A stretch of 64,000 bases of DNA from Thermoplasmata archaeon (GCA_038852315.1 JAWCKF010000007.1:1148-65147), one strand, 5' to 3'. Numbered from the stretch's first letter, positions 37,104-52,271 are shown. Notes: a model not told the origin generated them from the letters alone. Made by a program: numbers and translations.

Positions 37104-40100
37104 ATGAGCGAGAGCGAGGGCTTCGGCGCCGCCTTGGTGATAGGCGGGGGGCCCGCAGGGATGCAGGCCGCGCTCGACCTGGCGGATTCCGGCTTCAGGG
37201 TGTATCTCGTGGAGAGCACGCCGAGCATAGGCGGAAGGATGGCCCAGCTGGACAAGACATTCCCCACGAACGACTGCTCCCTCTGCATCCTGTCTCCGAA
37301 GATGGTCGCGGTCGGAAGGCACGAGAACATCACTCTCCTGACATATGCGGATGTGGAGGAGGTCCAGGGTTCAGCTGGCAGGTTCAAGGTAAGGGTGAGG
37401 AAGAAGGCCAGATACGTTCACGAGGACAAGTGCGTCGGCTGCGGGGCGTGCGCTGCCGTCTGCCCGTCGAAGGTGGACAGCGAATTCGAAATGGGCATGG
37501 CCAAGCGGAAGGCGATCTACGTGCCGTTCCCGCAGGCCGTACCGCTCAAGTACACCATTGACAGGGAGAGATGCCTGCACTTCAAGACAGGCAAGTGCCT
37601 TCTGTGCGTGAAGGCGTGCGAGGCCAAGGCAATCGACCACAAGATGGAAGACCAGATTCTGGACCTCGAGGTCGGTGCGATCATTGTGACCTCTGGCTAC
37701 GATCTCTTCGACGCTTCCAAGAAGGCCGAGTTTGGGCACGGCCTCTACAAGAACGTGGTCACGAACCTCGAGTTCGAGAGGATGTTGAGCGCATCAGGCC
37801 CGACCGAGGGGCACATACTGAGGCCGTCCGATGGAAAGCCGCCAAAGAGCATCGCGTTCATACAGTGCGTCGGCTCGAGGGACGTACAGACTGGCAACAC
37901 CTACTGCTCGTCATACTGCTGTATGGCGGCCATAAAGGAAGCTGTCATCGCAAAGGAGCACTCGCCCGACCTTGAAGCGACCATCTTCTTCATGGACACG
38001 CGGGCATTCGGAAAGGAGTTTGAGGAGTACCTCACCAGGGCCGAAAGCGAGTACGGCGTGATAGTCTACAGGAACAACCGTGTGCCGAAGGTCCAGGAGG
38101 ATCCCGGGACAGGCAACCTCATTCTCACATTCCATGCGGGCGCCGAGCTGCTCGAGGAGCACTACGACATGGTCGTGCTATCAGCGGGAGCACGCCCGCC
38201 CGCTTCGATGACTGACCTTGCCAGGAAGCTCGGAATTCAGCTCAATAAGTTCGGATTCGTCGACACGGACGATCTCACCCCCGTGGACACCTCAGTTCCC
38301 GGCATATACGTCTGCGGTGTCCTCTCGGGCCCGAAAGACATCCCCGATTCGATAGCTCAGGCGAGCGGTGCTGCGGGCAAGGTGGCCGCATCCCTGTCAA
38401 AGGAGCGGGGCAAGCTGGTGACCAAGAGAGAGTATCCGCCCGAGCGGGACGTTTCGAACGAGCCTCCCAGGATAGGGGTCTTCGTGTGCCACTGCGGGAT
38501 CAACATCGCGTCTGTGGTGGACGTCCAGAAGGTGGCCGAAGTCGCGTCGACGCTGCCCGGTGTGGTGCACTCCGAGAAGATGCTGTATGCCTGCTCGGAG
38601 GATGCTCAGAAGCGCATCAAGGAGATGGTGGAGAAGCACGGCTTGAACAGGGTCGTGGTCGCGAGCTGCACCCCTAGGACTCATGAACCGCTGTTCCAGA
38701 ACACGCTCAGGGAGGCCGGACTGAACAAGTACCTCTTCGACATGGCCAACATAAGGGACCAGTGCTCATGGGTGCACAGGAAGGAACCCGAGAAGGCGAC
38801 GGAGAAGGCGATCGACCTCGTGAGGATGGCTGTCGCGAAGGCGAGTTCTCTGGAGGCTCTGCCACAGCCGAGGATACCTGTCCATCCTGCAGCCCTCGTG
38901 CTCGGGGGCGGGTTGAGCGGACTCACAGCAGCGCTTGAGATCGCAGATGCTGGCTTCGAGGTTCACCTTGTGGAGAAGGACAAGGAACTGGGAGGCCATC
39001 TCAGGAACATCTATCACAAGACGCTCGCGGGCGTCGACCCTCAGGAGGTCCTGCGGGAGCTCAAGAAACGCGCATCCGAGCACCCGAAGATAAGGCTGCA
39101 CATGCAGGATGAGCTAGCAGAACTCAAGGGCTACATAGGCAACTTCGAGGCCACGCTCAAGAGCGGCGAGAAGGTGAAGCACGGGGCCATAGTCGTCGCC
39201 ACCGGCGGGGAGGAGTACGAGCCTGTCGAGTACCTGTACGGCCAGCACCCGCGGGTCATACGGCAGTCCCGGCTGAGCGAGATGCTTGCCAAGGGGGAGT
39301 TCAAGGCCAAGAACGTGGTCATAATCCAGTGCGTCGGCTCGAGAAACGGTGAACACCCTAACTGCTCTAGGATATGCTGCCAGACGGCAATGGCGAACGC
39401 CATCAGAATCAGGAAGGAACATCCCGATACCAACGTGTTCATACTCTTCAGGGACATCAGGACATATGGCTTCGCTGAGGAGCATTACAACGAGGCCGCC
39501 AGGCTCGGCGTCACGTTCCTCAGATACGATCCCTCGCAGCCCCCGCAGGTCTCCGCCGATGGGGACAAGCTCGTGGTCGAGGTGGAGGAGCAGTTCATCG
39601 AGGAGACCGCACGCATAGTGGCCGACTACCTTGTCCTCAACGCGGCGGTCCATCCGAACCCTGACAACCAGGAGCTACACAAGCTGCTCAAGGTGCCCCT
39701 GACGAGAGAAGGGTTCTTCCTCGAGGCGCACATGAAGCTGAGGCCGGTGGATTTCGCGACCGACGGAATATTCCTCTGCGGGCTCGCGCATTCGCCCAGG
39801 CTCATCGGGGAGAGCATCTCCCAGGCCCTCGCCGCTGCCGCGAGGGTTAACACCGTCCTGTCGAAACAGTATCTCGAGGCCGAGGGCGCCGTCTGCGTCG
39901 TCGACGAAGACAAGTGCATCGCGTGCGGCAGATGCGAGGAGGTCTGCAAGTACGGCGCTCCGAGGCTCGATGAGGTCAGACCTGGCGTTGTGAAGTCGCG
40001 CATAAACGAGGCGTTGTGCAAAGGATGCGGGTCGTGCGCCGTCGCCTGCTGCTCACACGCCATAACTGCGAGGCACTTCAGGTCAGACCAGATCGAGAGA

Positions 40101-40154
40101 ATGATCGAGGCGGCTCTGAGGCGGGAGCTCCCGAAGGAGGAGGCAAAGGCATGA
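37104..40154 (+). CDS. hdrA: fused double HdrA-like flavoprotein (QmoA-like N-module + canonical HdrA core), module 1
   Basis: Two dinucleotide-binding sites ([16 protein letters not shown] and [17 protein letters not shown]), [19 protein letters not shown], several CxxCxxCxxxCP ferredoxin motifs, the HdrA N-domain motif [14 protein letters not shown] and [23 protein letters not shown] precedes the start. Confidence 0.9.
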
Positions 40155-41749
40155 CCGATGCGACATTCGAGCCCAGGATAGTCGCGTTCTGCTGCAACTG
40201 GTGCTCGTATGCCGGTGCGGATCTGGCCGGCGTGTCGAGATTCCAGTATCCCCCCAACGCCCGGGTGATAAGGGTCATGTGCTCGGGCAGGGTGGAGCCG
40301 TACTTCGTGCTGAGGGCTCTTGAGCAGGGAGCGGACGGCGTCCTGATCACAGGATGCCACATAGGGGACTGCCACTACATATCCGGCAACGAGGAGGCCC
40401 AGAAGCGCATGGAGATGACCATGGAGCTTCTGGACAAGCTCGGGCTGGGAAGGGACAGGATGCGGCTAGAATGGATCTCCGCCTCCGAGGGTCAGAAGTT
40501 CGCGAAGACCATGACCGAGTTCACGGAGCAGATCCGCAAGCTGGGCCCAAACCCGCTCCAGCCCCAGCCACCGAAGAAGAAGGGGGACGCTTCGAAGCTG
40601 AAACAGGTCATGGACGAGATAATCGAGGGAACGGGTGCGTTCGACTGCGTCGAGTGTGGCAAGTGCACGACCGTTTGCCCAGTGGCCAAGTACAACACCG
40701 AGTTCGCGCCCAGGACAATCGTCCTCAAGGCCATGGAGGGAGTCGCTGAGAACGTCTCGTCGAACAAGGACGTGTGGACGTGCATAACATGCGAGCAGTG
40801 CAACTCGATGTGCCCCTACAAGGTCGATTACTCCGGCTTTATAAGGGACATGAGGAAAGAGGCCACCGGCTTCGGCAACGTCCCTACCTGCTCCCAGGGT
40901 GGGCTGATGCACTCGGTGATGAGGATACAGGCCAACAGCAGTCTAAGGCAGGACCGGTTGCGGTGGCTGACAGACGACCTGAGGATCTCGGACAAGGGTG
41001 ATGTGTTCTTCTTCGTGGGCTGTGTGACCTACTTCGACACAATATTCAGAGAGCGCAAGAACCTCTCCCTGGCTAGCATACCCCAGGCTGCAGTAAAGAT
41101 TATGAACAAGGGGGGTATTGTCCCCGTGGTCAGCAACGACGAGGTATGCTGCGGGCACGATCTCAACTGGACCGGGGACGAGTACAACCTCAGGAAGCTG
41201 ATGAAAAGGAACATCGAGTTGATACGCGCCTCCGGGGCCAAGAAGGTCGTGTTCTCATGCCCCGAATGCCTCAGGACCTTCAGTCTAGACTACCAGGACA
41301 TAATGGGGGACCTGGAGTTCGAGATGGTGCACATCTCGGAGCTGGTGGACGAGCTCGTCCAGGAGGGCAGGCTGAAGTTCAAGAGGGAGGCCCGGAAGCT
41401 CACCTTCCAGGACTCCTGCAGGCTCGGGAGACATCTCGGGACATACGACCCGCCCAGGAGCGCCCTGGCCGCGACGGGCGCTGCGGTTGTCGAGATGGAG
41501 AACACGAAGGACAAGGCACTGTGCTGCGGAGTGAGTGCGTGGGCCACATGCGACGAGATCTCCCGCAAGCTCCAGGTCGCGAGGCTGACGGAGGCGAAGC
41601 GCACGGGTGCCGAGTGCCTGATCACTGGGTGCTACAAGTGCCTGATACACCTGAGCTGCGTGCAGGAGAACAAGACCCAGGTGCCCAAGGAGCAGATCGA
41701 CATCCCGATAAAGGATCTCAGTGTCGTGTTGGCTGATTCGCTTGAGTAA
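40151..41749 (+). CDS. MvhD - HdrC - HdrB triple-domain fusion protein
   Basis: The MvhD domain has [13 protein letters not shown]...GCHIGDCHY. The HdrC-like 2x[4Fe-4S] region has [12 protein letters not shown] and [12 protein letters not shown]. Two HdrB-type CCG domains follow (FFFVGC...VCCGHD and FQDSC...LCCGVS...GCYKC). The start overlaps the hdrA stop (ATGA). Confidence 0.85.
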
Positions 41750-41772: not shown

Positions 41773-42153
41773 ATGACAGACAAGGACCAGAAGGCGCCGC
41801 CGAAGGGTGAGGAGAGGTATCTGCTCGTCGAGCTGTCGTGCAAGGACCTCAAGTGCTCGCCCTGCACCTATCCGAACTGCCAGAGGTTCGTCAGGTCCGT
41901 TCCGAAGAAGAAGCCGTTCGAAACACGCATGACGAAGATGTTCGAGGTGAAGAAGCCGATATCGGCACCCGGCGACACGAGAGAGCGCATACTGCTGGTC
42001 GAATTGTCATGCAAGGACAAGAAGTGCTCGCCGTGCACCTATCCCAACTGCCAGAGGTTCGCGAAAATATCTGGCAAGGGAAAGGCGCCTTTCAAGGTCA
42101 AGGTCACTGAAGTCAAGGGCGACAGGGAGGTGCAGAGCCTCCTGAACAAGTGA
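41773..42153 (+). CDS. small Lys-rich protein with tandemly duplicated CX4CX2CX4C motif, no family recognised
   Basis: 126 aa. ERYLLVELSCKDLKCSPCTYPNCQRF (aa 14-39) is repeated as ERILLVELSCKDKKCSPCTYPNCQRF (aa 71-96). GAGG lies 5 nt upstream of the ATG. Codons are GC3-rich like the flanking hdr genes. The gene begins 23 nt after the previous gene. Confidence 0.65.
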   Translation: MTDKDQKAPPKGEERYLLVELSCKDLKCSPCTYPNCQRFVRSVPKKKPFETRMTKMFEVKKPISAPGDTRERILLVELSCKDKKCSPCTYPNCQRFAKISGKGKAPFKVKVTEVKGDREVQSLLNK

Positions 42154-42229
42154 CAACGACAAAACCCTTAGGAATGCTGCTCGAGGAGAATGATTGCGAG
42201 GGCACGAGGAACCGAGAGGAGGTCTGAGA

Positions 42230-43525
42230 ATGGAGAAGGCCGTGATGGTGATCGGGGGAGGCGTCGCCGGAATACAGGCGGCACTGGACCTGGCTGACAA
42301 GGGGATTATCGTCCACCTGGTCGAGAAGACTCCCAGCATAGGCGGGAGGATGGCGCAGCTGGACAAGACTTTCCCAACGAACGACTGCTCGATATGCATA
42401 CTTGCGCCGAAGATGGCGGACTGCTTCAGCCATCCCAACACGAACGTGATAACCTACGCCGAGGTCGTCGGAGTCGAGGGGAAGGCGGGTGCGTTCAAGG
42501 TCAAGGTACTGAAGAAGGCCAGATACGTCGACGAGTCGAAGTGCACGGGCTGCGGGGAGTGCCTCGAGAAGTGCCCGTCCAAGGTCCCGAACGAGTTCGA
42601 GATGGGGCTCTCCACGAGGAAGGCGATCTACATGCCTTTCATGCAGGCGGTCCCGAGAGTCATGACCATCGACAAGGACCACTGCCTGATGCTCACCAAG
42701 GGCAAGTGCGGCAACTGCAAGAAGGCCTGCAAGAGGGAGGCCATCAACTACGAGATGAAGGACCAGATACTGGAGATCGATGTCGGGGCGATCATCGTCG
42801 CGACGGGGTTCGATTCGTGGGACCCGTCCTCATCAACCGAGTACGGCTATGGCAGGTTCCCGAACGTCTTCACCGCACTCGAGTACGAGCGCATGATAAA
42901 CGCGGCAGGCCCGACGCACGGCCACATCGAGAGGAGGTCTGACAAGAAGCGCCCGCAGAAGATAGCGTTCATACAGTGCGTCGGATCGAGGAATCCGACC
43001 ACGGGTCATCCCTACTGCTGTGCCGTCTGCTGCATGCACTCCACCAAGGAGGCCATGCTGGCCAGGGAGCACCACGACGATATGGAGTCGACGATATTCT
43101 ACAAGGACATGCGCGCCTGCGCGAAGGGGTTCTGGGAATACGTCGAGCGAGCCAAGAGGGATTACGCGGTTAGGTACATCAACTCCGACGCGACCGTACA
43201 GGAGAATCCCGAGAACCACAACCCGATCGTAGTGTACGACGTGGGCGGACGGCAGATGTCGGAGGAGTTCGACATGGTCGTGCTCGCGACCACCCTCGTC
43301 CCGAGGAAGGAGACCCTGGAGCTGGCTAAGGTCCTGGGCCTCAAGGTGGACGAATTCGGCTTCCTCGAGTCCGCCGACCGGATACTCGACCTCGGCCGGA
43401 CGGTCGTGCCAGGCATCTACGTCGCGGGGTACTGCGCCGGCCCTGCTGACATCCCCGAGTCGGTCGCTCAGGGCTCGAGCGCGGCGGCGAAGGCGGTCGA
43501 GACGCTCGCTCAGGCGGGAGTGTGA
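42230..43525 (+). CDS. HdrA/QmoA-like flavoprotein (stand-alone N-module), module 2
   Basis: [35 protein letters not shown] and CTGCGECLEKCP, colinear with residues 1 to about 440 of the fused proteins. The ATG at 42230 is preceded by GGAGGT. Confidence 0.85.
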   Translation: MEKAVMVIGGGVAGIQAALDLADKGIIVHLVEKTPSIGGRMAQLDKTFPTNDCSICILAPKMADCFSHPNTNVITYAEVVGVEGKAGAFKVKVLKKARYVDESKCTGCGECLEKCPSKVPNEFEMGLSTRKAIYMPFMQAVPRVMTIDKDHCLMLTKGKCGNCKKACKREAINYEMKDQILEIDVGAIIVATGFDSWDPSSSTEYGYGRFPNVFTALEYERMINAAGPTHGHIERRSDKKRPQKIAFIQCVGSRNPTTGHPYCCAVCCMHSTKEAMLAREHHDDMESTIFYKDMRACAKGFWEYVERAKRDYAVRYINSDATVQENPENHNPIVVYDVGGRQMSEEFDMVVLATTLVPRKETLELAKVLGLKVDEFGFLESADRILDLGRTVVPGIYVAGYCAGPADIPESVAQGSSAAAKAVETLAQAGV

Positions 43526-43530
43526 TCTTG

Positions 43531-45396
43531 ATGGCGGAGAAGACGATCGACAAGAACGAGAAGCCGAGGATAGGCGTGTTCGTTTGCCACTGTGGCGCCA
43601 ACATAGGCGGGTTCGTGGATGTGCCGTCGGTCGCGGAGTACGCGAAGACGCTGCCTGATGTGGTGTACGCGACAGACAACCTGTACACCTGCGCCGAGGA
43701 CGGCCTTGCGAGCATCAGGGAAGGCATAAGGAAGCACAACCTCAACAGGGTCATCGTCGCGAGCTGCACCCCGAGGACCCATGCCCCGCTGTTCCAGGCG
43801 ACTTGCGAGTCTGCCGGGCTGAACAAGTACATGTTCACGTTCGTCAACATCAGGGAGCACTGCTCCTGGGTGCACATGAAGGAGAAGGAGCGGGCGACCA
43901 AGAAGGCCAAGGACCTCATCCGTATGGGCGTTGCCAGGGCGAGGCTGTTGGAGCCGCAGGTAGAGGCGAGGGTCGACGTCACGCCCGTGGGATTGGTCAT
44001 CGGGGGCGGCGTGTCAGGCATGACGGCAGCCCTGTCGCTGGCCAACATGGGGTTCCCAGTACACCTGGTCGAGCGCGAGAACGAGCTCGGCGGGTTCGTC
44101 AGGAACCTGAACAACCTCTATGTGACGGAGAAGAGCGCCGTCGAGACCATCAGGCCGCTCATCGAGAAGGTCACGTCCCACAAGAACATCACACTGCACC
44201 TGAACTCTCAGGTCAAGAGCGTCGAGGGGTTCATCGGCAACTACGATGTGGTCATAGGGACAAAGGGTGCTGAGGACACCAAGGTCAAGGTCGGGACGAT
44301 AATCGTCGCGACAGGGGCGCTGGAGTTCATGCCCGAGGGGCTGTACGGGTACAACCAGTACCCGAACGTCGTCACGCTGACGGAGTTCGAGATACTGTGC
44401 AAGAAGAAGACCTTGCCGAAGCTGAAGAGCGTGGCGTTCATACAGTGCGTCGGCTCGAGGGGTCAGGTGAAGTCGTACTGCTCGCGGATATGCTGCAACG
44501 TGGCGATCAAGAACGCCATCAACATAGTGGACAACTACGACAACATGCTCGGGCTGGCCGAGAGACAGGGCACTGTCGTGGAGAAGATACCGGTCGAGCA
44601 GAAGGCCACTGACGAGATACTCGAGAGGAGGCGCAGGAGGCGCGGAAGGGAGAGGGGCGAGGAGGCTGGCGCTGAGGAGGTCAAGCTCGGCCCCGCAGAG
44701 AAGATCGAGGTGACCGTGTTCAACAGGGACGTCATGGCATACGGCGTCGAGCACGAGCTGGCGTACAACAAGGCAAGGGAGAAGAGGGTCAAGTTCATCA
44801 GATACACTACGGACCACCTCCCGAAGGTCTACATGGAGGGCAACCAGCTGATGGTCGCCTACTTCCACGAGACCCTGAAGCTCGAGAGGACGATGCCCGT
44901 GGACATGGTCATCCTCTCGACGCCGCTAGTGCAGCAGACCGGAGCTGCGGAGCTGTCCCAGATGCTGAAGGTGCCGCTCGGACAGGAGGGGTTCTTCCTC
45001 GAGGCGCACGTGAAGCTCCGGCCAGTGGACTTCGCGACGGACGGCATCTATGTTTGCGGCACCTGCAGGGGGCCGGCCGACATAACCGAGTGCACCTACC
45101 AGGCCGCGGCGGCGGCTTCGAGGGCCGCGATACCCATGGCCAGGGGTTATGTGCAGGCTGAGGCGCTCACCTCGGTCGTGGACGAGAACAAGTGCACTGG
45201 CTGTGGCACGTGCATACAGGTCTGCCCGTACGGCGCCCTCAGGAAGAACGACAGGGGCTTCGCCGAAGTCATTGTCGCAGCGTGCAAGGGCTGTGGCTGC
45301 TGCGGCGCGACCTGCCCGGAGGGCGCGATCACCATGACGAACTACACGGACGCGCAGCTGCTCGCGGAGGCGAAGGCCGCGCTCGAGGAGGTGTGA
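43531..45396 (+). CDS. hdrA: HdrA core protein (stand-alone C-module), module 2, with a 55-aa charged insertion
   Basis: [50 protein letters not shown]...CSRICC and the C-terminal CTGCGTCIQVCP / CKGCGCCGATCP. The start could instead be GTG 43522, which overlaps the upstream stop. Confidence 0.85.
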   Translation: MAEKTIDKNEKPRIGVFVCHCGANIGGFVDVPSVAEYAKTLPDVVYATDNLYTCAEDGLASIREGIRKHNLNRVIVASCTPRTHAPLFQATCESAGLNKYMFTFVNIREHCSWVHMKEKERATKKAKDLIRMGVARARLLEPQVEARVDVTPVGLVIGGGVSGMTAALSLANMGFPVHLVERENELGGFVRNLNNLYVTEKSAVETIRPLIEKVTSHKNITLHLNSQVKSVEGFIGNYDVVIGTKGAEDTKVKVGTIIVATGALEFMPEGLYGYNQYPNVVTLTEFEILCKKKTLPKLKSVAFIQCVGSRGQVKSYCSRICCNVAIKNAINIVDNYDNMLGLAERQGTVVEKIPVEQKATDEILERRRRRRGRERGEEAGAEEVKLGPAEKIEVTVFNRDVMAYGVEHELAYNKAREKRVKFIRYTTDHLPKVYMEGNQLMVAYFHETLKLERTMPVDMVILSTPLVQQTGAAELSQMLKVPLGQEGFFLEAHVKLRPVDFATDGIYVCGTCRGPADITECTYQAAAAASRAAIPMARGYVQAEALTSVVDENKCTGCGTCIQVCPYGALRKNDRGFAEVIVAACKGCGCCGATCPEGAITMTNYTDAQLLAEAKAALEEV

Positions 45397-49274: not shown

Positions 49275-49732
49275 GCTCAGAGGCCGCGCACAAGTCCGAT
49301 GCCGGACACGGGGAGACGGGCGAGTGGGAGCCTAAGATACTGGTGTTCTGCTGCAACTGGTGCTCGTACGCCGGGGCGGACCTGGCTGGCGTGAGCAGGT
49401 TGCAGATGCCCCCGTACTTCCGCGTGATAAGGGTCATGTGCTCCGCCAGGGTCGACCCCGAGTTCGTCATGCGGGCGTTCCAGAAGGGTGCCGACGGCGT
49501 GCTCGTCGCGGGGTGCCACCCGGCAGACTGCCACTACATAGGCGGCAACTACAGGACGCGCAGGAGGATGGCGCTCATGAAGATGCTGATACAGCAGTTC
49601 GGGTTCGACCCCGACAGGCTGAGGCTCGAATGGATATCGGCAGGCGAGGGCGAGAAGTTCCAGAAGACCATAATCGAGTTCACCAACACCATCAAGGAGC
49701 TGGGCCCATCGCCCATCAAGGGAGGTGCGTGA
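49271..49732 (+). CDS. mvhD: F420-non-reducing hydrogenase iron-sulfur subunit D (MvhD)
   Basis: [18 protein letters not shown]...GCHPADCHY, 153 aa. It has an ATGA overlap with hdrA and lies directly upstream of mvhG/mvhA. Confidence 0.9.
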   Translation: MSSEAAHKSDAGHGETGEWEPKILVFCCNWCSYAGADLAGVSRLQMPPYFRVIRVMCSARVDPEFVMRAFQKGADGVLVAGCHPADCHYIGGNYRTRRRMALMKMLIQQFGFDPDRLRLEWISAGEGEKFQKTIIEFTNTIKELGPSPIKGGA

Positions 49733-49733
49733 G

Positions 49734-50750
49734 ATGGCCGAGAAGATAAAGATCGCGCAGTACTGGGGCGCCGGGTGCGGAGGGTGCGACGTCGCGCTCC
49801 TGGACATAGACGCGAAGATACTCGATGTGCACGCGATAGCCGATGTCGTGTTCTGGCCGATCGGCTTCGACGGCAAGCTCCACGAGATAGAGAACATGCC
49901 CGACAAGTCGATCACCGTGAGCTTCTACAACGGCGCGATAAGGAACTCCGAGAACGAGCACATAGCCAAGGTCCTGAGGCAGAAGTCGGTCATCATGATA
50001 GCCTTCGGGTCGTGTGCGTGCTACGGAGGCACGCCCGGGCTCGCGAACGTGACCAACAGACAGGAGGTCTTCGAGACGGTGTACAAGCAGACGCCTTCCA
50101 CCGACAACCCCGAGGGCGTGTTGCCCCAGCCGCGGGTGAAGGTCAAGGAGGGAGAGCTCGAGCTGCCCGAGTTCTGGGACACCGTCAAGACGCTCGACGA
50201 GGTCGTCGACGTCGACTACTTCATGCCGGGCTGTCCGCCCACGGTCAACCTGATCGCGATGGCGGTCGATGCGGTCGTCGCGCACGTCACGAAGGGCGCA
50301 CCGCTGCCCCCGAAGGGGACGGTCATCGCGTCCGACAAGACGCTCTGCGACGAGTGCAAGAGGGAGAGGGTCGAGAAGGGCAGGAGGATCGAGAGGATCT
50401 ACCAGGCCTACGAGATAAAGCCCGACCCGAAGAAGTGTCTGCTCGACCAGGGCATAATATGCCTGGGGCCGGCCACGAGGGCCGGGTGCGGCGCGATGTG
50501 CCCGAACGCGCAGATGCCCTGCAGGGGCTGCATGGGCCCGACGAAGGCCGTGACGGACCAGGGCGCGAGCATGCTGAGCGCGGTGTCGTCCCTGCTCAAC
50601 ATCACGGATTCGGAGTCAAAGTTAAGTGAGGAGCAGATAATGGAACTCATGATGCAGGTGAAGGACCCGTTGGGCACGTTCTACGCGTTCTCCCTGCCGA
50701 AGTCGCCTCTGAAGAGGACTGTGACGGAGCGCAAGAAGAGGAAGGGGTGA
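49734..50750 (+). CDS. mvhG: [NiFe] hydrogenase small subunit, Mvh/F420-non-reducing type (MvhG)
   Basis: IAQYWGAGCGGCDVALLD N-terminal cluster motif and further Cys clusters (GSCACYGG, PGCPP, CDEC, CLGPATRAGCGAMCP...CRGC). RBS GGAGGTG precedes the start. Confidence 0.9.
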   Translation: MAEKIKIAQYWGAGCGGCDVALLDIDAKILDVHAIADVVFWPIGFDGKLHEIENMPDKSITVSFYNGAIRNSENEHIAKVLRQKSVIMIAFGSCACYGGTPGLANVTNRQEVFETVYKQTPSTDNPEGVLPQPRVKVKEGELELPEFWDTVKTLDEVVDVDYFMPGCPPTVNLIAMAVDAVVAHVTKGAPLPPKGTVIASDKTLCDECKRERVEKGRRIERIYQAYEIKPDPKKCLLDQGIICLGPATRAGCGAMCPNAQMPCRGCMGPTKAVTDQGASMLSAVSSLLNITDSESKLSEEQIMELMMQVKDPLGTFYAFSLPKSPLKRTVTERKKRKG

Positions 50751-50756
50751 GCACCA

Positions 50757-52271
50757 GTGACAGGACCAGTGATCAACGACACGCCGACGAAGACAAAGGA
50801 GAAGAGGATAACGATAGACCCCATCACCAGGCTGGAGGGCCACGGGAAGATAGAGATCTTCCTGAACGATGCGGGCGATGTGGAGAACGCCTACCTCCAG
50901 ATACCGGAGCTGAGGGGGTTCGAGAGGTTCTGCATAGGCAGGCACGTGATGGAGCTGCCCGTGCTCACGAACAGACTCTGCGGCGTCTGTCCAGCGGCGC
51001 ACCACATGGCAAGCACGAAGGCGCTCGACGCGGTGTTCGACGCCGAGCCCACGCCCACGGCGAAGAAGCTGCGGGAGCTGTTCTACATGGGCCAGTACAC
51101 GCACAGCCACATAGCCCACTTCTACGCGCTCGCTGCTCCGGACTTCGTCCTTGGCCCGGCCGCTCCCGCTAACAAGAGGAACGTCCTCGGCGTCGTGGAC
51201 GCCGTAGGCGTTTCAATAGGTGCGGAGGTCATAAAGCACAGGTCCTACGGGCAGAAGATCCAGGAGATCGTCGGCGGGAGGGCCACGCACCCCGTGTTCG
51301 GGTTGCCAGGGGGCGTCTCGAAGCAGATAAGCGAGGAGGAGCGGGCACAGATGGAGGCCATGGCGAAGAGCTGCGTCGAGTTCGGCAAGTTCACCATCAA
51401 GCTCTTCCACGACGTGGTGCTCGGCAACAAGGACTACATGAACATCGTGCTCAACAAGGACGCGTACTACCTCGAGACCTACTACATGGGCATGGTCGAC
51501 AAGAACAACAAGAGCAACTTCTACGACGGCGACGTGCGCGTGGTGGACCAGGCCGGCAAGGAGGTCGTGAGGTTCAAGCCGAGCGAATACCTGGACGTCA
51601 TCGCCGAGCATGTGGAGCCATGGACCTACATGAAGATGCCCTACCTGAAGAAGGTTGGCTGGAAGGGGTTCGTGGACGGCGCCTCGAGCGGCATATACAG
51701 GGTCGGTCCGCTGGGCAGGATCAACGTCTGCACGGGCTACACCACGCCACTGGCGCAGAAGGAGTATGAGGTCTTCAAGAAGACGATGAAGGACCTGGGC
51801 GTCACGGGGCCCGCACACCACACCATGGCGTACCACTGGGCGCGCGTCATAGAGCTGCAGTACGCGGCCGAGCGCATGCTGGAGCTCGCGAGCGACAGGA
51901 GCATAACCAGCGACGACATCAGGGGGCCGTACAAGCAGCCGAAGGAGGGCGTGGGCATAGTCGAGGCCCCGAGGGGCACGCTGATACACCACTACGCCTC
52001 CGACAAGGACGGCCTGTGCACGAAGATAAACATGATCGTCGCGACGACGAACAACTACGCCGCGATCAACACCAGCGTAAGGCAGGCCGCGAAGGCGCTG
52101 ATAAAGGGCGGGCACGTCTCGCCAGGTCTCCTGAACAAGGTGGAGATGGCCTTCAGGTGCTACGACCCGTGCAACTCCTGCGGCACGCACTCCCTGAGCG
52201 GCGGGCCGGCGCTGGAGATAGTCGTGCGCAGGAAGGACGGGTCTGTGCTCACGACCCAGAGAAACTTCTGA
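50757..52271 (+). CDS. mvhA: [NiFe] hydrogenase large subunit, Mvh type (MvhA)
   Basis: N-terminal RLCGVCPAAHH (RxCGxCxxxH) and C-terminal DPCNSCGTH (DPCxxCxxH), followed by a cleavable extension. GTG start. Confidence 0.9.
   Translation: MTGPVINDTPTKTKEKRITIDPITRLEGHGKIEIFLNDAGDVENAYLQIPELRGFERFCIGRHVMELPVLTNRLCGVCPAAHHMASTKALDAVFDAEPTPTAKKLRELFYMGQYTHSHIAHFYALAAPDFVLGPAAPANKRNVLGVVDAVGVSIGAEVIKHRSYGQKIQEIVGGRATHPVFGLPGGVSKQISEEERAQMEAMAKSCVEFGKFTIKLFHDVVLGNKDYMNIVLNKDAYYLETYYMGMVDKNNKSNFYDGDVRVVDQAGKEVVRFKPSEYLDVIAEHVEPWTYMKMPYLKKVGWKGFVDGASSGIYRVGPLGRINVCTGYTTPLAQKEYEVFKKTMKDLGVTGPAHHTMAYHWARVIELQYAAERMLELASDRSITSDDIRGPYKQPKEGVGIVEAPRGTLIHHYASDKDGLCTKINMIVATTNNYAAINTSVRQAAKALIKGGHVSPGLLNKVEMAFRCYDPCNSCGTHSLSGGPALEIVVRRKDGSVLTTQRNF

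Follow-up and report, generated by a model that had tools for sequence, protein, structure and literature searches.

A fused MvhD-HdrD-type protein from a Thermoplasmata archaeon without methanogenesis as a modest variant on known heterodisulfide reductase parts

Complexes built on HdrA of heterodisulfide reductase (Hdr) are the main model of flavin-based electron bifurcation, and the layout of the adaptor and of the HdrBC or HdrD arm around a double-unit HdrA is only now being solved (class II benzoyl-CoA reductase, BCRII, and Elp-Hdr). In BCRII of Geobacter metallireducens, as seen by cryo-electron microscopy, BamE consists of a fused HdrA dimer, the MvhD adaptor BamF brings electrons toward the bifurcating FAD, and the HdrD-like BamD takes the high-potential electron from cluster E4 of BamE (bioRxiv 10.64898/2026.04.10.717634). 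Covalent joining of MvhD to another Hdr subunit is already known from HdrA2B2C2 of Methanosarcina acetivorans, a characterised system in which MvhD sits on the C-terminus of a type Ia HdrA (PMC5296606, PMC12054007), and HdrD-like genes have been described within HdrA clusters (PMC9012536). Here, we analyse a gene in a 64,000-nucleotide stretch of DNA from a Thermoplasmata archaeon (GCA_038852315.1, JAWCKF010000007.1:1148-65147; the window) which encodes an MvhD domain and an HdrD-type module in one chain. It is a real and conserved gene of a non-methanogenic archaeon and a modest variant of known heterodisulfide reductase parts. By analogy with the solved complexes, the polypeptide is likely to combine the MvhD adaptor with the HdrD-type high-potential acceptor arm of an HdrA-type bifurcating complex.

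The fusion gene is a stop-free frame of 532 residues (P0001; Table 1) whose ATG overlaps the TGA of the upstream gene for a 1016-residue HdrA-like protein (ATGA, 40151-40154), with a ribosome-binding site, GGAGGAGG, 7 nt 5' of the ATG. A GTG at 40016, inside the hdrA frame, would add 45 residues; since every homologue aligned from the first residue of the ATG form, the start was placed at 40151. A Pfam search placed MvhD/FlpD (PF02662) at residues 10 to 132 with 191 bits (cut-off 22.3) over the whole length of the model (1-123), a 4Fe-4S dicluster domain (Fer4_8/Fer4_17) at residues 165 to 226, and CCG (PF02754) in two stretches with 73 bits against a cut-off of 20.6, the best stretch being 418-501. 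An earlier note made from the DNA had described a single frame overlapping the hdrA stop and made of three parts, recognised by the MvhD cysteine pattern, two CxxCxxCxxxCP motifs and the CCG motifs VGC...CCGHD and DSC...CCGVS...GCYKC, and this description held throughout.

The cysteine map of the 532-residue protein accounts for the ligands of each part. The six cysteines of the MvhD domain (C14, C15, C18, C44, C69 and C74) all aligned with those of solved MvhD chains, to which the domain was 56-60% identical (59% to 5ODC chain D), and the segments FCCNWC, MCSGR and GCHxGDCHY corresponded cysteine for cysteine with 5ODC_D, 8RVU_F and 7BKB_F. The two ferredoxin motifs read C166-x2-C169-x2-C172-x3-C176-P and C211-x2-C214-x2-C217-x3-C221-P. 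Both CCG domains were found to have complete ligand sets, ten cysteines in all, with C291-x41-C333C334-x35-C370-x2-C373 in the first (CCG1) and C423-x34-C458C459-x34-C494-x2-C497 in the second (CCG2). Both agree with the HdrB pattern CX31-41CCX34-36CXXC. The first spacer of a canonical CCG domain is reportedly x31-39, a range that Wagner et al. are said to have given in 2017, and the x41 of CCG1 is two residues longer.

In the AlphaFold2 (AF2) model of the whole chain, which had a mean predicted local distance difference test score (pLDDT) of 83 and a predicted template modelling (TM) score (pTM) of 0.88, the MvhD domain matched MvhD chains at TM scores of 0.84-0.88, and the C-terminal part matched the folds of EtfD, HdrB and LutA. 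The pTM is consistent with a fixed arrangement of the modelled domains. Between the MvhD and ferredoxin domains, the model placed a coil (residues 132-146) followed by a helix (147-161). The sequence of this linker varied among fused forms while its length was kept within the clade, and in split orthologues both the stop of MvhD and the start of HdrD fell at the linker position.

Family tests were then used to establish what each domain is. The MvhD domain scored 145 bits against NF045873 (cut-off 215), the VhuD/MvhD equivalog for the subunit on which the hydrogenase docks, and the gene adjoining mvhG and mvhA is a different mvhD. For the remainder of the chain, solved HdrC chains matched at E 6e-11, but the HdrC models scored 52, 45 and 55 bits against cut-offs of 160, 350 and 270 (TIGR03290, NF041779 and NF041890, respectively). 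No HdrB model was among the 25 NCBIfam matches listed. Solved HdrB chains matched at only E 0.001-0.007, solely over the second CCG domain, where the CC and CxxC of CCG2 aligned with the second CCG domain of HdrB, and the fold agreed at TM 0.62-0.69. The best NCBIfam matches were LdhH, TfrB, GlpC and GlcF, all far below cut-off, with the TfrB model aligning over residues 151-527. The best solved match was EtfD of Mycobacterium smegmatis (PDB 9OJN), at E 1.6e-28 over residues 206-502 and with a fold match of 438 columns. The architecture is that of HdrD, with a single chain carrying a ferredoxin dicluster domain and, C-terminal to it, a pair of CCG domains. On these comparisons, the C-terminal two-thirds is an HdrD/EtfD/TfrB-type module and not an equivalog of methanogen HdrC or HdrB. 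Since an HdrD-type chain is itself an HdrC-plus-HdrB-like fusion, the protein is best described as MvhD joined to an already fused HdrD-type module. The proposal in the earlier note that HdrC and HdrB are fused here therefore stands as regards the ferredoxin motifs and CCG ligands, but not as regards the families themselves, HdrC lying far below its cut-offs and HdrB matching at E about 0.005. A membrane cytochrome b was not among the scanned neighbouring genes, no search aimed at HdrE having been made.

The constant partner of the fusion gene was HdrA. The loci examined came from Thermoplasmata, Cytophagia-labelled, WOR-3, Chloroflexota and Glassbacteria metagenome-assembled genomes (MAGs), Desulfobacteraceae, Ca. 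Alkanophaga and Planctomycetota. Among 11 Thermoplasmata loci with the fusion, seven (L001-L003, L007, L052, L060 and the window) have the gene behind a double-unit HdrA, and the remaining four, which carry a second paralogue (type B, see below), have it behind a single-unit HdrA of about 610 residues. The order HdrA, MvhD, HdrD was also found where the genes are split (L009, L011, L008 and L013). An HdrA-family gene preceded the fused or split gene in every locus examined but one, L040, in which mvhD, hdrC and hdrB come first. In Desulfobacteraceae, Planctomycetota and Ca. Alkanophaga, the fused gene lay directly 3' of an HdrA- or HdrL-like flavoprotein gene of 672-1142 codons, often with a 4-nt overlap, and hydrogenase genes were not found near it in these loci. 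The fused gene is thus tied to HdrA and not to the hydrogenase.

Two further features of these distant loci were observed. In one locus of Desulfobacteraceae (L081, 757-3561) and one of Planctomycetota (L084, 2322-4985), the HdrL-like gene and the fused gene were directly 3' of a 2-oxoacid:ferredoxin oxidoreductase operon, a context which suggests a ferredoxin-linked, not H2-linked, role in those bacteria. In Ca. Alkanophaga (L082, 8766-9416; L083, 3778-4521), an IS605 OrfB/TnpB-type gene was located immediately 3' of the fused gene, between this gene and a second double-unit HdrA.

From the domains, ligands, conservation, synteny and fused and split states reported here, we infer that a complex forms, which way electrons flow in it and what kind of acceptor they reach, as follows. 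The partner of the fusion protein would be the translationally coupled 1016-residue HdrA built of two fused HdrA units, to which, because of the analogy with BamDEF and HdrABC-MvhAGD, the fusion protein is predicted to supply both adaptor and high-potential arm. Electrons would reach the bifurcating FAD of HdrA via an MvhD-type cluster. The high-potential electrons would then leave through an HdrA [4Fe-4S] cluster to the ferredoxin domain of the fusion protein and on to the CCG clusters, the HdrD-type arm being expected to carry a pair of cubane [4Fe-4S] clusters and, after these, two CCG domains with room in each for a non-cubane [4Fe-4S] cluster. These last would reduce a disulfide-type acceptor other than the heterodisulfide of coenzymes M and B (CoM-S-S-CoB). 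The fusion would tether two subunits of one complex and create no new electron route, and the hydrogenase at the end of the operon would be served by its own stand-alone MvhD.

Searches of the window's own genome, which is 89% complete, did not find McrA (PF02249), ComA (PF02679), DsrC or ETF. Heterodisulfide is not reduced by EtfD (PMC13083937), the closest solved relative for the CCG half, or by BamD (bioRxiv 10.64898/2026.04.10.717634), the closest solved analogue with three parts. In addition, the operon has three HdrA modules but only one HdrD-type module, so that any of the three is a candidate for the module served and more than one stoichiometry is conceivable. All of these points weigh against the complex proposed above. 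Since the organism is without Mcr and ComA, CoM-S-S-CoB is an unlikely substrate, CoB biosynthesis having been outside the searches made. The earlier note had assigned heterodisulfide reduction to the CCG clusters; the ligands of both clusters are present, but because McrA, ComA and DsrC were not found in the 89% complete genome, heterodisulfide reduction is no more than a putative function.

Some weight can also be given to a different role for the HdrD-like half, either in relaying electrons to a protein or to some other acceptor that is not a thiol, or as the Fe-S/CCG subunit of a hydroxy-acid dehydrogenase of the LutA, GlcF or LdhH kind. This is the alternative that fares best, though we regard it as rather unlikely. 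It would agree with EtfD as the best solved match, with LdhH, TfrB, GlpC and GlcF as the leading NCBIfam matches and with the failure to find markers of the CoM and DsrC pathways. BamD offers a precedent: its heterodisulfide site is blocked and it reduces ETF, passing electrons to it, while EtfD accepts electrons from ETF (bioRxiv 10.64898/2026.04.10.717634; PMC13083937). However, the fusion protein keeps all ten CCG cysteines, as does catalytic HdrB, whereas EtfD and most BamD homologues have lost one ligand. All the NCBIfam scores also lie far below cut-off, the ETF gene was among those not found in the 89% complete genome, and no GlcD-, LutB- or LutC-type gene was adjacent among the Pfam-scanned neighbours.

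It is doubtful, but conceivable, that the tether does more than hold two subunits together. The tether between MvhD and HdrD recurs in many distant lineages, where the fused gene invariably stands after a gene of the HdrA family and in most cases lacks an accompanying hydrogenase. This recurrence could mean that the [2Fe-2S] cluster of MvhD lies within electron-transfer distance of the HdrD cubanes. The cluster could then form a second, gated route from the entry point to the high-potential arm, or a bridge from the three HdrA modules to a single CCG site that reduces a thiol or disulfide cofactor of non-methanogenic Thermoplasmata.

The earlier note had proposed that the hydrogenase docks at the fused MvhD and that its electrons enter there, so that electrons from H2 would pass straight to the HdrCB-like site and a separate MvhD would not be needed. 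An Mvh-type hydrogenase is indeed encoded in the same operon (Table 1), and the pTM of the AF2 model would leave room for tight packing of the MvhD domain against the ferredoxin domain. However, a stand-alone mvhD lies directly before mvhG and mvhA. It starts within the stop codon of the second double-unit hdrA, that of the third module, ATG and TGA forming an ATGA junction of the type seen at 40151, and its 3' end overlaps the start of mvhG (49725). With a further MvhD domain in the 278-residue protein of the operon, the claim that the fusion makes a separate MvhD dispensable is contradicted by the locus itself. Direct wiring of electron entry to the catalytic site also conflicts with the solved Hdr and BCRII complexes, in which MvhD or BamF feeds HdrA or BamE and not HdrC or BamD. 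It conflicts as well with the fusions of Desulfobacteraceae, Planctomycetota and Ca. Alkanophaga, which follow an HdrA- or HdrL-like gene and have no hydrogenase nearby. We therefore consider hydrogenase docking improbable, and prefer a fused MvhD that feeds the neighbouring HdrA.

The operon around the fusion gene is composed of three HdrA modules (Table 1). The first consists of the double-unit HdrA, the fusion gene and the gene for a 126-residue protein with eight cysteines. This HdrA has FAD sites near residues 11 and 598 and matched solved HdrA chains at E 1e-218, and the 126-residue protein directly followed the fused or split hdrD in six other loci (L001, L002, L003, L007, L009 and L060). 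The tail of the 278-residue MvhD protein showed a weak match to HTH_20 (E 0.0076). BamF exceeds the usual length of an MvhD adaptor by more than 100 residues and has a winged helix-turn-helix in contact with BamI (bioRxiv 10.64898/2026.04.10.717634), and by analogy the 278-residue protein may be the same kind of extended adaptor. The genes hypB, hypF, hypC, hypA and hypD lie 5' of the modules, and 3' of mvhA are an endopeptidase gene and, on the opposite strand, hypE. An AOR-type gene was not among the operon genes scanned with Pfam.

Table 1. Position and supporting evidence of the fusion gene, its domains and the neighbouring operon genes (window coordinates; aa, amino acids)
Feature	Coordinates	Strand	Evidence
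MvhD-HdrD-like fusion gene	40151-41749	+	open frame, ATGA overlap, ribosome-binding site, Pfam FlpD + Fer4 dicluster + 2x CCG
MvhD/FlpD [2Fe-2S] domain, aa 10-132	40178-40546	+	PF02662; solved MvhD chains
Linker, aa about 133-160: Pro/Lys-rich coil, then helix into ferredoxin domain	40547-40630	+	
HdrC-like ferredoxin domain, two CxxCxxCxxxCP motifs, aa 165-226	40643-40828	+	Pfam; solved HdrC chains E 6e-11
CCG domain 1 (C291, C333, C334, C370, C373; H336)	41006-41275	+	PF02754, motif spacing, conservation; aligns to EtfD CCG1
CCG domain 2 (C423, C458, C459, C494, C497; also C467, C503)	41402-41653	+	PF02754, conservation
HdrA, 1016 aa, two thioredoxin-reductase-like FAD units ("type II"/fused-dimer)	37104-40154	+	Pfam, NCBIfam HdrA2 1032 bits in 3 stretches
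126-aa eight-cysteine protein	41773-42153	+	weak Pfam FeS match only
Module 2: HdrA-like protein as 443-aa + 624-aa genes	42194-45396	+	Pfam; order kept in related loci
Second MvhD domain, 278-aa protein, tail about 125 aa	45400-46236	+	PF02662 182 bits, aa 28-150
Module 3: second double-unit HdrA, 1013 aa	46233-49274	+	Pfam
Stand-alone MvhD (third MvhD domain), about 153 aa	49271-49732	+	PF02662 192 bits, own-genome match
[NiFe]-hydrogenase, Mvh-like: small subunit 49725-50750, large subunit 50757-52271	49725-52271	+	Pfam Oxidored_q6, NiFeSe_Hases

The conservation of the fusion was examined in 301 genomes of the class Thermoplasmata, 39 of which belong to the family of the window. A full-length, uninterrupted copy (type A) was present in all 39, at 71-82% identity, and the ligand cysteines were invariant or nearly so in 39 homologues. 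Most of the 39 genomes also had a second fused paralogue (type B, 54-58% identity), and one genus had a third (46-48%). In a collection of 5.8 billion proteins, the best 120 clusters at the 90% level showed the FlpD + Fer4 + CCG architecture, nearly all at about the same length, under source names such as "hydrogenase iron-sulfur subunit [Thermoplasmata archaeon]", "heterodisulfide reductase subunit D" and "Fe-S oxidoreductase/F420-reducing hydrogenase delta subunit". At the 50% cluster level, there were about 20 fused representatives with 33-60% identity, among them forms from Ca. Alkanophaga liquidiphilum, Desulfobacteraceae/Deltaproteobacteria, Planctomycetota and unclassified bacteria. Across 16 fused proteins of this identity range, C15, C44, C69 and C74, the eight ferredoxin cysteines, and C291, C333, C334, C370, C423, C458, C459 and C497 were invariant. 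Databases hold thousands of MvhD-HdrD fused proteins. A full-text literature search found no paper naming such a fusion, and papers on HdrA diversity, on Hdr clusters of anaerobic methanotrophic archaea (ANME) and on basal Thermoplasmata place HdrD beside HdrA with no mention of the fusion.

Split mvhD and hdrD pairs do occur in related genomes, but a sequencing or assembly frameshift that joined two separate genes is excluded by the stop-free fused frame in 39/39 genomes of the family, by the common architecture, at nearly always about the same length, of at least 120 independent clusters (90% level) that come from different sources, and by a linker which is translated and keeps its length within the clade. 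Of the two findings which the earlier note had said would overturn the fusion, missing CCG cysteines and artefactual joining of genes, neither was encountered.

Fused paralogues elsewhere gave additional observations. In the window's own 1.7-Mb genome, the type B paralogue (58% identity) is cut by contig ends (G000:C14:41472-42833 and C11:2-442), and several further HdrD-like and MvhD-like genes are found elsewhere. In a genome of genus g2 of the family (G144:C1:585696-587294), a third fused paralogue (46% identity) contains one in-frame TGA, which could be selenocysteine or the mark of a broken gene.

The fused state was next compared with its alternatives. In a sister family and in other orders (L009, L011 and L014), MvhD (about 140-160 residues) and HdrD (about 390 residues) are separate and in different frames within the same surrounding genes, and adjacent, separate mvhD and hdrD genes are also present in Chloroflexota (L012 and L047) and WOR-3 (L013). 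A Cytophagia-labelled MAG (L008, 8001-8423) was considered as a bacterial fused form and rejected: in the DNA, a TAA stop precedes the hdrD ATG, which follows three bases on in the same frame, and the locus is split. In the mvhD of this locus, a TGA within the frame falls precisely where GCHxGDCHY has Cys69, and probably encodes selenocysteine. In a Ca. Glassbacteria MAG (L015, 4083-8378), a stop-to-stop frame of 1432 residues carries MvhD on the C-terminus of a large HdrA-like protein and is followed by a separate hdrD, and in ANME-2c (L040), mvhD, hdrC and hdrB are all separate. That fused, adjacent but separate, and HdrA-fused states all occur is the Rosetta-stone pattern that subunits of one complex would be expected to show. 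The fusion reflects an adjacent mvhD-hdrD pair 3' of hdrA whose members have stayed apart in sister lineages and in several bacteria, and both kinds of fusion, of MvhD to HdrA and of MvhD to HdrD, can be understood from the gene order hdrA-mvhD-hdr(CB/D).

How often the state changed was addressed with trees. The MvhD domain of the window was 84% identical to the split MvhD of L009 versus 47-57% to the MvhD domains of type B fused proteins, suggesting that types A and B may have arisen by independent fusion. The tree of the HdrD part was a polytomy inside Thermoplasmata. In the concatenated tree, type A, the clade of the window, grouped with split orthologues (93% by the Shimodaira-Hasegawa-like approximate likelihood ratio test, SH-aLRT), and in the approximately unbiased (AU) test a tree with every Thermoplasmata fused form in one clade was not rejected (p 0.4). 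At least two changes between fused and split states took place on the tree, each of which may have been a fusion of a split pair or a later fission.

The fusion is common in databases and made of known parts, and it modestly extends the existing picture without changing it. It is chiefly of value in constraining how the complex can be built and in marking the putative acceptor site. A natural link between adaptor and acceptor arm limits the positions of both on HdrA, and the segment 37104-41749 offers a simpler, two-gene construct for expression and structure work. The fusion protein is the sole HdrB-like catalytic module in a three-module Hdr/Mvh operon of a non-methanogenic archaeon, and it would therefore mark the site of acceptor reduction in these widespread sediment and soil archaea.

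Compared with the methanogen complex HdrABC-MvhAGD (PDB 5ODC and relatives), the locus shares an MvhD domain, HdrC-type ferredoxin motifs, the HdrB-type CX(n)CCX(n)CXXC pattern and an operon combining HdrA with an [NiFe] hydrogenase. It differs in that HdrC and HdrB are separate chains in methanogens, only remotely similar to the fusion protein, and in that HdrA is here a double unit in an organism without Mcr and ComA. Like HdrA2B2C2, it has an MvhD covalently tethered to another Hdr subunit, an arrangement which works there without hydrogenase docking; the fusion partner, however, is HdrA in that system and the downstream HdrD-like subunit here, and the Glassbacteria protein (L015) represents the HdrA-MvhD alternative at a homologous locus. 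With HdrD of HdrDE, TfrB and EtfD, the fusion protein has in common a 2x[4Fe-4S] ferredoxin domain and two CCG domains in one chain. These proteins lack an MvhD domain, and HdrD and EtfD function together with a membrane-bound partner or domain that carries haem b. In CCG1 of EtfD, Thr replaces the second Cys (C-T versus C-C) and the cluster is a linear [3Fe-4S] (PMC13083937), whereas the fusion protein keeps C-C.

The closest solved analogue is BamDEF, in which a fused-dimer HdrA, an MvhD-type [2Fe-2S] adaptor and a single-chain HdrD-like protein with two cubanes and two CCG domains are likewise encoded together. The tungsten module BamB/C and BamGHI of BCRII are absent from the Thermoplasmata locus, where the input is probably the Mvh hydrogenase and where ETF was not found in the genome. 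The adaptor and the HdrD-like protein, separate in BamDEF, are one polypeptide in the Thermoplasmata archaeon. Finally, BamD of G. metallireducens has a Cys-to-Ser change in its distal cluster, giving [3Fe-4S], whereas the fusion protein keeps all ten CCG cysteines.

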